Shown: positions 4,491 through 22,700 of the stretch, piece by piece | How positions within the stretch are numbered: the stretch's first letter is position 1 | Layout of the letters: every line of letters starts with the position of its first letter | From: Eubacteriales bacterium | GTDB lineage: Bacteria > Bacillota > Clostridia > Oscillospirales > CAG-272 | Direction of reading: 5' to 3' | Length of the DNA stretch: 24,000 nucleotides | Assembly (NCBI GenBank): GCA_045538195.1 | Contig: JAZSRA010000065.1 | Span: 1 to 24,000, forward strand | Made by a program: the position numbers and the translations under genes | Notes under the pieces: generated by a model | The model's database searches: none | Told to the model about the DNA's origin: nothing | What the model saw: the letters and a program-made list of their open reading frames with translations, nothing else

Positions 4491-4540
4491 TTCAAAATCC
4501 TTTCTCGGATAAACCAATTTCTGATTTTCTGATCGTTGCT

Positions 4541-5251
4541 TTATTTGAATATCTTTACGTCTTTTTCACGGTGAAAAACAAGTATGATTCCCGCAAGCGC
4601 AGCACCCGCCGCCGCCGAAACCAGTATTTGCATAAGGGGCAACCCTGCCGCGATAAGCTTTATTGAAGGGAGTATTACCTCGATCAATGAAAATACCGAC
4701 GATCTTAAGGTCAAATATTCCACCACGGTAAGCACGGCAGTCACAGCGGCAAAGGTAACGACTCTCCAAATCGAATAATGCATTTTAGGGCTACCCGGAA
4801 CAATAAATCTGTTCACTTCCTTAACAACAACACAAACATAAGCAGTATTTTCGGGAAGAATAGCTGCCGCAGCGTCGCCAGATGAAACCTTTGGCACAGA
4901 TATTTGTATCGTGTCTATCTCATTGTTGCCTGAATCCAATGCAACCACGTCATATTTAATGGAAAGTATTCTCTTGTCAAATTTGCATTTTATGTACTTA
5001 TCACCGTCGTTTACGGAAAGTATATACTGCTTTATGTATTTTCCCGTCTCACCGTAGGGCTTATAGGTAATTGCTCTGCCGCCCTCGAAAACATATTTTT
5101 CGAGTCCTCTGTCTCCCATGTCCTGCACATTATAGTTCGCTTTCAGTAAAAACAAGGGCAATATCTTAGACACAAGGGCAACGTACAGAGACAAACTGAA
5201 AACAAATATTATTATTTGTGTCGGGATCGACATTGTGATCATTGTTGTCAT
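4541..5251 (-). CDS. Hypothetical polytopic membrane protein (N-terminal TM anchor, about 120-aa domain related to the 217-aa neighbour, C-terminal TM bundle)
   Basis: ATG at 5251 with AGGAGA 5 nt upstream. Hydrophobic segments at both ends. Central KYIKCKFDKRILSIKYDVVALDSGNNEIDTIQISVP resembles KKCLTLRFLNELDYVVNAMEFSVVQMDASGKILETLKIKY of the neighbouring protein. Confidence 0.65.
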   Translation of the reverse strand: MTTMITMSIPTQIIIFVFSLSLYVALVSKILPLFLLKANYNVQDMGDRGLEKYVFEGGRAITYKPYGETGKYIKQYILSVNDGDKYIKCKFDKRILSIKYDVVALDSGNNEIDTIQISVPKVSSGDAAAAILPENTAYVCVVVKEVNRFIVPGSPKMHYSIWRVVTFAAVTAVLTVVEYLTLRSSVFSLIEVILPSIKLIAAGLPLMQILVSAAAGAALAGIILVFHREKDVKIFK

Positions 5252-5304
5252 TGTTATCTCCTGAACTTTGTAATATTTAATATAACCGATATAACCGTCA
5301 GAAT

Positions 5305-6795
5305 TTATTTGGCATATTTAGAGAATATCCTTCTCACGTCTTCCTCGGTAACGGTCGAACCACCCAGATGCTTCAGTATTTCCTCGGCAACGGACGTTGC
5401 CATATCGTCCGGCAACGTAATACCGTATTCTTTGATGTATTCCCGGGCATAGGATGCAAGTACCTTTGCCTTTTCTTCTTCACTGGAATATCCTCTGTCG
5501 TTTACCTTGTTGATAGCATCGGCAATATCTTCCATCAACACATTGTATTTTGATGAATCGTAGTCAAATTCTCGGATATATTTCGAAACCGCCGCCATTG
5601 CTATTGAAGAAACGCTGATGCCGCTCATGTTGGGGTTTTCCTTAAGAATAGCATCCAGCCTGCCAACAATATCGCTTTCATTCACATACTCTACAAGAGA
5701 ATTGAAATTGCTCATATTTACGGCAAAAAGATCGCTATCCATCACTGCAGCGTATAGTTTCAACAAAGTGATCATATTAGCCTTTGCGCTGTGATGGTCT
5801 GTGTTTTGACAAACCGAAAGTATTTCATCAAAGGCGGGTTCGATCAGATCGTTGGTAACAGGCTTCGCTATGCCAAAAACCCGATCACCGTTTTTCCATG
5901 CAGTTGCAAAACTTGAAATATATTCACCCAAAGCTCCCGAGAATAGCTCCAGTCTTTCTACGTTATCGCAAAGCCCATATATTCGGCTTATTTGCTCGTC
6001 AGTTGCGTTTTGGGGATCAACGAATGCGCTATACGTGTACTTGAGATCATCAAAAACATCTACCAGTGCGTCTGCTTCGGAAATCAAGTGGACTCTTTCA
6101 CCGTAAACCTCAGCGCTTGCGGCACTATAATACATCAGTTTGCCTCCAAGCTGATAAAAAACATTTCCGCAAAAGTCGTTTGCATAAACAGACAAGTCTA
6201 TTTCGTTTGCACTTTCCGTCACGCTATCCGTCTCGCTTAGTTTAAAATTGCCAACAATACTCAAAGTCTTGTTTGCAACGTCAAGAGTTCCCATTATCGG
6301 ACTCGTTATTACCATAGTTACAACAACCGAAACGATCACACCCGTAATGACCGACAGCACTTTGTCGTTTTGATCAAAATAAGAGTTTTCCTCTTTACAG
6401 TATTCTGGCGTATCAGCGAAACGTCTGATCTTGCTTTTACACACTATACGAACGATAAATTGAGTAATAGCGCGAACCGCAAAAAACACCGCAACGAAAA
6501 GTAGCGACCCGAGGACCATTCCCATGATAGCCTCAACAAATACGTTTACCCAGGAATAGTCTTGAACCAATTCCCGATACACAGAAAGGTTATTGAGAAT
6601 TAAATACGATACAAGGCTTGAAATGACTTCGGAAATGAGATATGTAACCAAAGCGGAAAAAATCACAGAAAACACAACTATAGCAAGTGAGATAAGGGTC
6701 ATTCTGAACCCTTTTTTGATGCTTCGATACACCTCCGTTGCAGTCACCGAGAAAAATATCAACAATATTGCGATCGAAAATAAGCTAAAAGTCAT
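5305..6795 (-). CDS. Membrane protein with a CvpA-like N-terminal TM bundle and a roughly 300-aa helical C-terminal domain
   Basis: ATG at 6795 with AAGAGGA 7 nt upstream. There are 4-5 N-terminal TM helices (FSIAILLIFFSVTA, LISLAIVVFSVIFSALVTYLI, GMVLGSLLFVAVFFAV, VITGVIVSVVVTMVI). The CvpA-family call is by overall resemblance only. Confidence 0.6.
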   Translation of the reverse strand: MTFSLFSIAILLIFFSVTATEVYRSIKKGFRMTLISLAIVVFSVIFSALVTYLISEVISSLVSYLILNNLSVYRELVQDYSWVNVFVEAIMGMVLGSLLFVAVFFAVRAITQFIVRIVCKSKIRRFADTPEYCKEENSYFDQNDKVLSVITGVIVSVVVTMVITSPIMGTLDVANKTLSIVGNFKLSETDSVTESANEIDLSVYANDFCGNVFYQLGGKLMYYSAASAEVYGERVHLISEADALVDVFDDLKYTYSAFVDPQNATDEQISRIYGLCDNVERLELFSGALGEYISSFATAWKNGDRVFGIAKPVTNDLIEPAFDEILSVCQNTDHHSAKANMITLLKLYAAVMDSDLFAVNMSNFNSLVEYVNESDIVGRLDAILKENPNMSGISVSSIAMAAVSKYIREFDYDSSKYNVLMEDIADAINKVNDRGYSSEEEKAKVLASYAREYIKEYGITLPDDMATSVAEEILKHLGGSTVTEEDVRRIFSKYAK

Positions 6796-20215: not shown

Positions 20216-21850
20216 TTAGTCTTCCTTCTTTTTGAAAGAAACCATGCCTGCAACTGTAGCTACTGCTACGATTGCAATTGCACCGAATCCAACTACGGAA
20301 CCGCATCCGCCTACATCAGCCTTATCGGTCTCGTCAGCATTGGGTTCTGTTGTCTGCTCGGTCTTGTTGGTTTCAACGGTTGTTTCCTCAGCTTCAACAG
20401 TTGTTTCTTCAGTCTCAACAGTCGTCTCTTCAACAGGATCGGTGGTAACGGTCTCGGTCTCCTCTACCCAACCAAGATCCTTTATGGTGTTCTGAACGTA
20501 AACCTCAGCCTCTTCGACAGATCTGAACCAAGCCATATAGAGAACGTCAAACTCGTTCGCGCCGGGAGTAGAAACGTCAATACCGTTAGCGTAATAACGC
20601 GCACCGTTGATACGGCCGGTTGCTTCAAAGGAAGCGTCGGTAGTCATATCAAAATAGAAATAGAGGTATGTATCATCGCCGATCACATAGGCGTTGTCGC
20701 ACATATTAAGCTCGTAAATAGTACATTGCGATCCGGCAACAATTGTGTCACCCGTGAGCATACGAACGTCAACGGACTCGTTAGCATAGCATGTACCATC
20801 CTCGGAACCACAGGTGCAGAAATTTCTCATAAGAATAATGCCAATGGGGAAATCCTCAATTGCATAGGAAATTTCATTTTTAACGTACCATGTACCGGTA
20901 TCAACATTTTCTTGGTGCGCTGCTACGTGAAGAGAGTAGTCCTCGTTAATAGTCAACGAAACGTCGTTAGCAGGCTTAGGATCAGACTTAAGATCGGAAG
21001 CCTCTTTGTTACCGTTCATAAGGATAGCGGGCTGATTTGCGGGAACCGTGCTTGCATCAGCGATGGGTGCATTTTCAGCAGAATTATTCTGAACGTCCTG
21101 TGAATCCTCCCCCATAGGAACGGTGGCATTGTCAGCCGATGTACCGAACTTGGTGACGGTCATTTCAACTGTACCACCAGTCACACTGTTCTGCGCACAG
21201 ATACCAATGTAAGCTTCACTGTCGTTGCCGCCCCACTTTTCGTTCATATAAGTGATAACCGCTTCCGGCGCTACTGCGCCGTTAATGTCAACTGCGTATG
21301 TTGAGCCGTCCCAAGTAACAGTAAGAGTAATAACATTCTTTCCGTCCTCAGTCTTCTGGTTCTTCTCGTCAACCATCATCACACCGGATGTGCCGGTGAA
21401 ATTACGGATGTGATAGTTGTTTACCTTAGTTAAATTACCATCAGTTGCACGAATGAGGGTCTGAACACCTTCACCATAGCCCTCTACGGGGGGCTCGATC
21501 ATTGCGGAATCCCAAATATTGATATTGAACCACTGGTCAGCGGCTTCATAAGAGAAGTTGTCGATTCTGACTTGGAAGTAAACGCCATCCTTGAGGTCAA
21601 CCTTTTCCTTGGTCTGGATGTGAGCCCAAGGAGTCTGACCGGTCCAATCTGCGGGAATCTGGTGGAGACCGTCATCGGTGTATTCATAACCGGCAACGGA
21701 CTTGGGGTCACCGTCGTAACCGTCTGCGTACTGAGATGCAGGTCCGTATACAGTCCACTGACCGTCAACTGCTGCTGCAGGAACGATTAAAACTACTGCC
21801 ATAGAAAGAAGCATCATAATCGCAAGTGATGTTGCTATAAGCTTTTTCAT
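20216..21850 (-). CDS. Secreted surface protein: signal peptide, unassigned roughly 450-aa domain(s), Thr/Glu repeat stalk, C-terminal GGCGS + TM + KKKED anchor
   Basis: ATG at 21850 (MKKLIATSLAIMMLLSMAVVLIVPAAAVDGQ) with AAGGAG RBS; the track's upstream start lacks an RBS. C-terminus: EETTVETEETTVEAEETTVETNKTEQTTEPNADETDKADVGGCGSVVGFGAIAIVAVATVAGMVSFKKKED. No LPXTG motif. Confidence 0.75.
   Translation of the reverse strand: MKKLIATSLAIMMLLSMAVVLIVPAAAVDGQWTVYGPASQYADGYDGDPKSVAGYEYTDDGLHQIPADWTGQTPWAHIQTKEKVDLKDGVYFQVRIDNFSYEAADQWFNINIWDSAMIEPPVEGYGEGVQTLIRATDGNLTKVNNYHIRNFTGTSGVMMVDEKNQKTEDGKNVITLTVTWDGSTYAVDINGAVAPEAVITYMNEKWGGNDSEAYIGICAQNSVTGGTVEMTVTKFGTSADNATVPMGEDSQDVQNNSAENAPIADASTVPANQPAILMNGNKEASDLKSDPKPANDVSLTINEDYSLHVAAHQENVDTGTWYVKNEISYAIEDFPIGIILMRNFCTCGSEDGTCYANESVDVRMLTGDTIVAGSQCTIYELNMCDNAYVIGDDTYLYFYFDMTTDASFEATGRINGARYYANGIDVSTPGANEFDVLYMAWFRSVEEAEVYVQNTIKDLGWVEETETVTTDPVEETTVETEETTVEAEETTVETNKTEQTTEPNADETDKADVGGCGSVVGFGAIAIVAVATVAGMVSFKKKED
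20372..20434 (-). repeat. 3 x 21-bp in-frame tandem repeat encoding the EETTVE(T/A) heptads
   Basis: Plus-strand units are TTCAACGGTTGTTTCCTCAGC, TTCAACAGTTGTTTCTTCAGT and CTCAACAGTCGTCTCTTCAAC. Confidence 0.7.
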
Positions 21851-21923: not shown

Positions 21924-21952
21924 ATGATATCACAATTATTCAAAAAAGTCAA
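21924..21952 (-). promoter_or_regulatory. Promoter candidate for the surface-protein gene
   Basis: Minus strand reads TTGACT (21952-21947), a 17-nt spacer, then TATCAT (21929-21924). Confidence 0.55.
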
Positions 21953-22049: not shown

Positions 22050-22661
22050 CTCCAACGAGAGTTCTTCCCCGCGCACTCTTCAAAGAATCGAGCAGCTGAA
22101 ATCTAATCCACCTCTCACACCACCGTACGTGCCGTTCGGCATACGGCGGTTCGCTTCTCTATCTCATACTGCTTCAACGCTTCTGCTCTTAGTTCTCTAA
22201 CCTAAGACTTCCCGCATTTTGCCTCATATACGTTTAGGCTACTTTGCGTATCGGTTTTGAGCAGAACATAAAACGATTTTTTCTTTCATCTTTTATTTGT
22301 ATTTGTATCTCAGTATTGGAGTGCAAAAAGTTCCACTTTTAAAACTTCCATTTCACCTTCCATTTTTCCTTTTCAAGCACCCTCAAAATTCCATAAAAGT
22401 TCCATAGTTTTAGTGAAAAGAAAGCCTATTTTGAGCCTTATAAAGCAAAAAAAGAAGAGCAGACCGAAGTCTGCCCCTCATGGCTTTAAGCCTTATGTTT
22501 ATTAGGTTTTCTATATCAGCCGAAGTATCTCGCAAGCAGGCCTTCGAATGCCTTGCCGTGTCTTGCTCATCGCCAAAGCTTCTCGTGGTCTTTGAGGGAG
22601 AAAGCTTTGCAGTGCAAGGTACGCAACGAGCTTAATTTCAGTAAATAAGAATCTAAAACAC
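22050..22661 (-). mobile_element. ORF-less group II intron-like RNA (class C-like); both boundaries approximate
   Basis: Domain V at 22149-22120 (see next feature). Upstream minus-strand stretches resemble domain I elements (GGCGAUGAG, CUGAUAUAG, two AUAAGGCU, and a UUCG-capped hairpin GGGCAGAC-UUCG-GUCUGC). 5' end candidates are GTGTT at 22661, directly after the T-tract of the XRE terminator, or GTTGCG at 22627. There is no ORF of 60 aa or more on the minus strand, so no reverse transcriptase. Confidence 0.6.
22120..22149 (-). ncRNA. Group II intron domain V (catalytic hairpin), short class-C form with a CGC triad
   Basis: Minus strand reads CCGCCGUAU-GCC-GAAC-GGC-AC-GUACGGUGG. This gives a 9-bp lower helix including the G.U of the triad, a 2-nt AC bulge, and a 3-bp upper helix with a 4-nt loop. 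The flanks GAA...UGUGAGAGG are as in class C introns. Confidence 0.8.
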
Positions 22662-22665
22662 AAAC

Positions 22666-22700
22666 AAAAAGAGAGACCTGCCACAAGGTCTCTCTTATTT
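22666..22700. terminator. Bidirectional rho-independent terminator overlapping the XRE stop codon
   Basis: AAGAGAGACC (22669-22678), loop tgccacaa, GGTCTCTCTT (22687-22696). On the minus strand it is followed by TTTTGTTTGTGTTTT. Confidence 0.7.

Follow-up and report, generated by a model that had tools for sequence, protein, structure and literature searches.

We observed that a segment on the minus strand, from 22157 (at most 22166) to 22087 of the window, is very probably a non-functional piece left over from the 3′ end of a group II intron of class C (IIC); by the window we mean the whole 24-kb stretch of DNA that was analysed. The remnant retains domain V and the linker together with a domain VI that is damaged, and ends at the normal 3′ splice site of its family, while the parts on which ribozyme activity and mobility depend, namely domains I–IV with the exon-binding sites and the reverse transcriptase (RT), are missing from the window. 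It belongs to a known and common category, the truncated or inactivated bacterial group II introns. The majority of the group II intron copies in bacteria have been truncated or inactivated (PMC4424553), their 5′ or 3′ fragmentation has been ascribed to incomplete reverse transcription or rearrangement (PMC2504315), and 111 orphan group II intron fragments have been described in Enterobacteriales (PMC3522654).

The identity of the segment as group II intron sequence is given by domain V. The read-out of the sequence placed CCGCCGTATGCCGAACGGCACGTACGGTGG on the minus strand at exactly 22149–22120, a 30-nt hairpin having the CGC triad, a 2-nt (AC) bulge, a short distal helix of 3 bp and a GAAC loop, as in domain V of class C introns. 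We found no mutation in it relative to the family, which is a point against a remnant but, since domain V is invariant throughout the family, says little about age. All 13 domain V pairs of the alifold consensus from a 19-sequence alignment were retained, including the G-U pair of the CGC triad. An Rfam scan of the window at the gathering threshold reported nothing. When it was rerun with an E-value threshold, RF00029 (domains V–VI) was the only credible match, at 22151–22082 of the minus strand with 38.9 bits (E = 7.5e-6 in a 1.2-kb search and 1.5e-4 in the whole window); in this alignment, the distal helix of domain V is 4 nt shorter. As the gathering score of the model is 40, the copy lies 1.1 bits below it, and therefore a default Rfam scan or a default annotation misses the fragment. 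The other weak Rfam matches (HrrF, mir-703, the L20 leader and others) had E-values of 0.15–10 and lay 50–80 bits under their cut-offs, and we rejected them as chance matches. A profile of related intron tails matched with an E-value of 1e-22 in nhmmer, and a 39-nt string that includes domain V occurs identically in at least 119 contigs. Thus, the hairpin is a class C-type domain V far beyond chance, exactly where the preliminary description of this DNA had placed one. The domain V strings of Oceanobacillus iheyensis and of the window gave no match in a text search of the literature.

The region that follows, 22119 to 22087 on the minus strand, consists of the J5/6 linker, a degenerate domain VI and the intron 3′ end, which reads ...CUCGAU with 22087 as the last base. 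In the family, the 3′ end has the form GAGAGG-(variable hairpin)-CCTACTCGAT followed by variable sequence, as seen in all 18 aligned and all 26 listed relatives, and the corresponding part of the window is GAGAGG-TGGATTAGATTTCA-GCTGCTCGAT, with a distal hairpin in domain VI (UGGAUUAG...). The family-invariant CCUACUCGAU has become GCUGCUCGAU in the window, that is, GCU-G-CUCGAU instead of CCU-A-CUCGAU. This difference includes the branch point (position 22093), which is an A in the family and a G in the window, and a domain VI pair (22111–22096), which is G-C in the family and G-G in the window; among the 19 aligned sequences, both of these defects are confined to the window. In the family, the bulged branch-point A lies seven nucleotides from the intron end, and the window's domain VI has no bulged adenosine 7–8 nt from its 3′ end. 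In the same alignment, four pairs of the distal domain VI helix of the relatives show compensatory changes, which indicates that this helix is under selection in working copies. The score of the window against RF00029 is below the 42–50 bits of the relatives because its domain VI is damaged. The preliminary description had closed the element by a GAGAG...CUCUC pairing near 22057. The CTCTC is indeed present at 22061–22057, but it lies outside the intron, as comparison with the family puts the closure of domain VI at 22089 and the last base of the intron at 22087.

On the 5′ side, the homology to introns stops shortly beyond domain V. The 5′ breakpoint of the fragment falls within 22166–22150 of the minus strand, where blastn and nhmmer place the last 8–17 nt of the intron 5′ of domain V (the edge of D4 and J4-5). 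Blastn alignments to relatives begin at 22157, at most at 22166, and against all 130 loci the matches stayed within 22166–22077, with the exception of a few chance-level AT-rich ones. When nhmmer was run without filters, using a profile of the tails of 11 related introns (from 450 nt upstream as far as the 3′ end), it aligned 22156–22082, with an envelope to 22176, and the RT C-terminal region covered by this profile gave no alignment to the window. With a profile of eight ORF-less relatives, the sole match in the whole window was 22158–22110. As a positive control, the latter profile gave 169–321 bits on domains I–III of held-out full-length relatives. The covariance models for D1–D4, including RF02001 and RF01998, gave no match at E ≤ 10, so that RF00029 was the only group II model matched, an outcome that the preliminary description itself had equated with an intron 3′ fragment. 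Altogether, neither the Rfam D1–D4 models nor the nhmmer family profile found domains I–IV, exon-binding sites or the D1 core in the window, and no intron 5′ half was found anywhere in its 24 kb. Homology is confined to the 3′ part, the last 70–80 nt, and ends at the family 3′ splice site CTCGAT at 22087.

Searches for the RT by tblastn with 11 family RTs and by an RT profile gave only chance-level matches in 23649–21550, and no match at E ≤ 1e-2 in the whole window, in agreement with the earlier observation that there is no RT ORF. We also considered whether GCGTTGAAG, which immediately precedes domain V in the window and resembles GCCTTGAAG of the relatives, might be left over from the C-terminus of the RT; nhmmer, tblastn and the RT profile did not support this. 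A kinship of the upstream 25 nt of the window with those of L083 (an ORF-less intron) and L030 was likewise dropped, as the nhmmer profile of ORF-less relatives stops at 22158. The 'domain I-like strings' that had been described upstream correspond to no D1–D4 match, and 22452–22040 (413 nt, domains V–VI included) folds no better than its shuffles (z = −1.19).

The 39-nt string (22149–22111) runs from domain V across the linker into domain VI, of which it covers the first strand. The genome contigs with an exact copy, at least 119, come from several phyla; the hosts among the matches listed include Clostridia, Bacteroidales, Kiritimatiellia, Lentisphaeria, Planctomycetota and Streptococcus. 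Most of the contigs among these matches end within ~20–90 nt of the string, as is usual for repeats at which assemblies break. Short-read contigs from gut and rumen metagenome bins (position 1 of L133 and most of L012–L130) very often start or stop in or beside this invariant string. Among the matches listed that had enough upstream DNA, an RT was present in 29 loci, and in ~13 of these it was intact, ending 1–15 nt before the 39-nt string. The family RTs are typically ~430–490 aa long, and one tested example had RVT_1 and GIIM domains and no endonuclease domain. The ribozyme bodies of the relatives scored 76–153 bits with RF02001 and 44–62 bits with RF01998. The 5′ ends of the relatives, both full-length and ORF-less, lie directly after a hairpin and a T-run, and the junction reads hairpin-TTTTTG followed by (G/T)(T/A)(G/T)CGCCC/GCTCGGCATG... 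In this terminator-adjacent insertion and the endonuclease-less RT, the parent family behaves as class C, and it is by such behaviour that class C introns are defined (PMC1702495, PMC4424553).

Five of the relatives are ORF-less class C introns: L125 ~4790–5533 (+), L058 ~1115–455 (−), L040 ~7866–7189 (−), L039 1–609 (+; its 5′ end is cut by the contig) and L083 ~6560–5950 (−; with a truncated domain VI). They carry RF02001, RF01998 and domains V–VI within ~0.6–0.75 kb, leaving no room for an RT, share the same 39-nt string and follow directly after a hairpin and T-run where this is visible. These compact introns look like the HYER-type ORF-less IIC ribozymes. Two other copies differ from these. 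The one in L030 (5710–6933, −) has RF01998 and domains V–VI without RF02001 and closely follows the 5S rRNA gene with which an rRNA operon ends; either it has been truncated at its 5′ side or it was inserted behind the rRNA terminator. In L050 (4596–4809, −), the RF02001 region (domain I) nearly abuts domain V and the last 22 codons of the RT are left; this copy is an internal deletion and not a 5′ truncation.

We also compared the window with other copies that are reduced to domains V–VI. Among ~44 loci with at least 300 nt of upstream DNA, six others lacked both the RT and D1–D4. These six keep 32, 35, 48, 54, 56 and 357 nt upstream of domain V, compared with at most 17 nt in the window, so that the breakpoints lie 17–56 nt from domain V in six of the seven copies without D1–D4, the window included. 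Four of the six, L065 (5077–5008, −), L089 (2366–2437, +), L115 (~4503–4600, +) and L110 (~6500–6082, −; the copy that kept 357 nt), start directly after a strong terminator-like hairpin. The clustering of breakpoints beside domain V suggests that such copies may arise from abortive reverse transcription at the normal target sites of class C introns. The fragment in the window does not abut a terminator hairpin on its 5′ side, as would be expected from 5′-truncated retrohoming: within 110 nt upstream there is only a weak 5-bp stem without a T-run, and the nearest terminator (22479–22454) is ~290 nt away. Hence, a plain truncated class C insertion would need a further event to account for this 5′ flank.

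Two routes could have led to this remnant. Reverse transcription starting from the intron 3′ end may have aborted just past domain V, leaving a 5′-truncated copy; or a full-length copy may have lost its body through the rearrangements that reshuffled the intergenic region. We consider 5′ truncation and later rearrangement about equally likely. A wider proposal is that domain V–VI mini-fragments are a recurrent and discrete product of class C mobility, made when the RT aborts past domain V in the manner of LINE 5′ truncation, and that some copies, possibly that of the window, were kept for a useful domain V, either supplied in trans to domain V-defective or ORF-less ribozymes of the same cell or serving next to terminators as a structural element of the RNA or DNA. 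The data that bear on it are those on breakpoints and terminator adjacency, and we regard it as very unlikely as a whole.

The gene downstream encodes a 544-aa protein (21850–20216, −), with its ATG at 21850 preceded by AAGGAG. A promoter scan placed a promoter-like site for this gene (TTGACT-17-TATCAT with TG) at 21952–21924 on the minus strand. As this site lies 3′ of the fragment, the latter is outside the predicted transcript of the gene; the ATG, which is the next one beyond the intron 3′ end, is 237 nt away from it and behind the gene's own predicted promoter. Being also behind two terminators on its upstream side, the fragment would at most be rarely transcribed. The N-terminus of the 544-aa protein resembles a signal peptide, its C-terminus forms a hydrophobic anchor, and it includes an acidic region of EETTVE repeats. 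Pfam gave no match for it, although Clostridia MAGs contain over 100 homologues, with several frequently found on one contig; it belongs to an uncharacterised surface-protein family. Exact-protein look-ups with this protein, a LysR protein and two small ORFs returned no record.

The organism is present in the samples ERR15157030/31. A search for homologues with the downstream gene gave one near-identical contig, the first base of which falls within domain V, and two orthologues that lack the fragment. The former (L133), from a second sample of the same organism, is 99.5% identical and starts at window position 22134, with no difference within the fragment and 11 in 2.4 kb overall. The other two (L134 and L135), in which the gene is 70% and 66% identical, have no domain V–VI upstream, and their upstream DNA shares no sequence with the window beyond ~27 nt before the ATG. 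The fragment is therefore seen at this position only in the 99.5% identical strain and not in diverged relatives, and nothing in these comparisons indicates that it is under selection.

These data bear on the possibility that the domain V–VI piece has been co-opted, either as a cis element for the neighbouring genes (a transcription roadblock or an RNA stability hairpin) or as a trans-acting domain V for a ribozyme elsewhere that lacks its own. It would fit with such a role that decay has affected domain VI but spared domain V and that the fragment is identical in the second sample, and a function as cis elements has been proposed for intron remnants in Sinorhizobium (PMC5894124). However, an identity within a pair of sequences that are 99.5% identical overall is uninformative. 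Moreover, the fragment is absent upstream of both diverged orthologues, it has the predicted promoter of the downstream gene on its 3′ side and the two terminators of the upstream gene on its 5′ side, and no T-run follows it. We consequently give co-option little credence, and the remnant is expected to be without function.

The preliminary description had proposed a larger element, a complete and compact ORF-less class C intron of ~0.6 kb, extending from 22661, next to the terminator of the XRE gene, to ~22050, which would be spliced with the help of an RT encoded elsewhere or would be slowly decaying. The DNA between the XRE gene and the fragment bears on this proposal. The stop codon of the XRE gene is at 22697–22695 and is followed by a bidirectional terminator hairpin (22696–22669, both strands; terminator scan) that also occurs with its flank in L010 and L007. 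The homology to L010 runs in the DNA from the XRE gene through this hairpin to window position 22623, and there the hairpin is followed by a convergent gene, which ends ...CNELNFSK*. The plus-strand frame of the window ends ...RNELNFSK*, and this tail (22623–22648, ...NELNFSK then stop) is all that remains here of the gene. The GTGTT at 22661–22657 is present as reported, but in L010 these bases likewise come after this terminator, where they are the 3′ flank of a gene; it is accordingly ordinary 3′ flank of the convergent gene and not the start of an intron.

A second terminator-like hairpin with a T-run was found by the terminator scan at 22479–22454 (−), in the middle of the proposed element, and 22474–22452 matches (23 nt, 95.7%) DNA that lies directly after the XRE genes of L001–L006, L008 and L009. 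The sequences downstream of the two terminators of the window are TTTGTGTTTTAGATT, which is common to L010 and part of the gene flank, and CTTTATAAGGCTC; neither resembles an intron start. An intron start after the second terminator (22454) was rejected, as it is unlike the family 5′ ends and without a profile match. The remainder up to the fragment (22453–22167, −) is an AT-rich spacer that does not derive from an intron; it has a GC content of 30–43% (30–38% in 22450–22200), and no homologue of 22452–22167 was found by Rfam, the nhmmer intron profiles, the RT profile, tblastn or blastn against 130 loci. Two strings taken from 22160–22620 had no match in viral contigs, the 711-nt region had none in phages, and in plasmids only the domain V of ordinary RT-encoding introns matched. 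The junction 20-mer GATAGAGAAGCGAACCGCCG gave two chance matches in metagenomes, both in unrelated GC-rich coding DNA without an Rfam match. The spacer contains three copies of a 10-nt repeat (22326–22335, 22341–22350 and 22395–22404; AAAAGTTCCA on the plus and TGGAACTTTT on the minus strand), 400–550 nt upstream of the 544-aa gene, which could be protein-binding sites or chance AT-rich matches.

The contigs with an identical XRE protein are of two types. In the L001-type, homology is lost at 22688, and the 23-nt hairpin match after the stop codon is followed by an ADP-ribosylglycohydrolase gene; in the L010-type, the order is XRE, the 22696–22669 hairpin and the convergent gene. In the window, the two hairpins follow one another and the convergent gene is reduced to its final codons; the sequence of elements is XRE gene, bidirectional terminator, 25-nt gene tail, 140 nt of no known origin, second terminator, 290-nt AT-rich spacer, domain V–VI fragment, promoter-like site and 544-aa gene. 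From these comparisons, the region 3′ of the XRE gene (22688–22452) is a mosaic and a recombination-prone junction, the pieces of which occur separately in other contigs.

It is extremely unlikely that this stretch is a complete ORF-less intron. Its perfect domain V, the 0.6–0.75-kb ORF-less relatives that share it, an orientation agreeing with that of the upstream gene and the terminators upstream made the reading a reasonable one, but the locus of the window is not one of these introns. D1–D4 models give no match, and the family profile finds nothing upstream, yet yields hundreds of bits on the relatives; the proposed body begins with the flank and tail of another gene (22661–22623), has a terminator in its middle, is poor in GC without a significant fold, and overruns the true 3′ end at 22087. 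The preliminary description had left a choice between a trans-dependent ORF-less intron and a decaying copy: the latter stands, and the former fails for want of domains I–III. A last alternative, that the fragment is the 3′ half of a split trans-splicing intron whose 5′ half lies elsewhere in the genome, might be suggested by its precise end at the family 3′ splice site and by the fragmentation that engineered bacterial introns are reported to tolerate (PMC1874635, PMC3410883), but it has next to no chance of being correct, as the branch-point A is lost and domain VI weakened, no coding exon follows the 3′ end, the break at the D4/D5 edge has no flanking pairing segment, and the window holds no 5′ half.

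The 3′ remnant is a trace of a widespread class C intron that once visited this site, and it points to an intergenic patch that is prone to rearrangement; it carries little biological weight by itself. It illustrates that a perfect domain V alone does not make an intron and that a check for D1–D4 is required, and also that short-read assemblies break at the 39-nt string with domain V because it is invariant.

We compared the fragment with known systems. With the class C introns O.i.I1 of Oceanobacillus iheyensis and B.h.I1 of Bacillus halodurans, it shares a domain V that is of the same type, 30 nt long with a CGC triad and a short upper helix, as well as the J5/6 linker and the outline of domain VI, and the relatives of the window share with class C introns the insertion after terminator hairpins and an RT without endonuclease (PMC1702495, PMC4424553). 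It differs from O.i.I1 and B.h.I1 in having only the last 70–80 nt, without domains I–IV, RT or 5′ splice site, and in its mutated branch A. The HYER ribozymes are ORF-less group IIC introns (Liu et al. 2024, cited in PMC12990946); HYER1 is 637 nt long, and besides domains I–III and V, HYERs have kept a site for target recognition. The domain V of the window is common to it and the 0.6–0.75-kb ORF-less relatives, and the size first proposed for its element was similar to that of HYERs. Unlike these, it has no domains I–III, and domains I–III with V within ~0.6 kb were not found by tests that do detect the ORF-less relatives.

FRE652, an RmInt1-like remnant of Sinorhizobium (PMC4181065, PMC5894124), resembles the fragment as a long-lived intron remnant in a recombination-prone region beside the gene of an HTH regulator. 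However, FRE652 is a 652-nt 5′ fragment (domains I–III and part of IV) that is conserved across species, whereas the window has a 70–80-nt 3′ fragment without conservation beyond one strain-level lineage. The closest likeness is to the truncated bacterial group II copies, known from the compilation of Dai and Zimmerly as summed up in PMC2504315 and PMC4424553 and from PMC3522654: like these, the fragment is partial, keeps one end, lacks an RT and lies in non-coding DNA of a rearranged region, and it matches the pattern of 5′ truncation that has been ascribed to incomplete reverse transcription. Having at most 17 nt 5′ of domain V and no adjacent terminator, it stands at the short extreme of such copies, and otherwise does not differ from them in substance.
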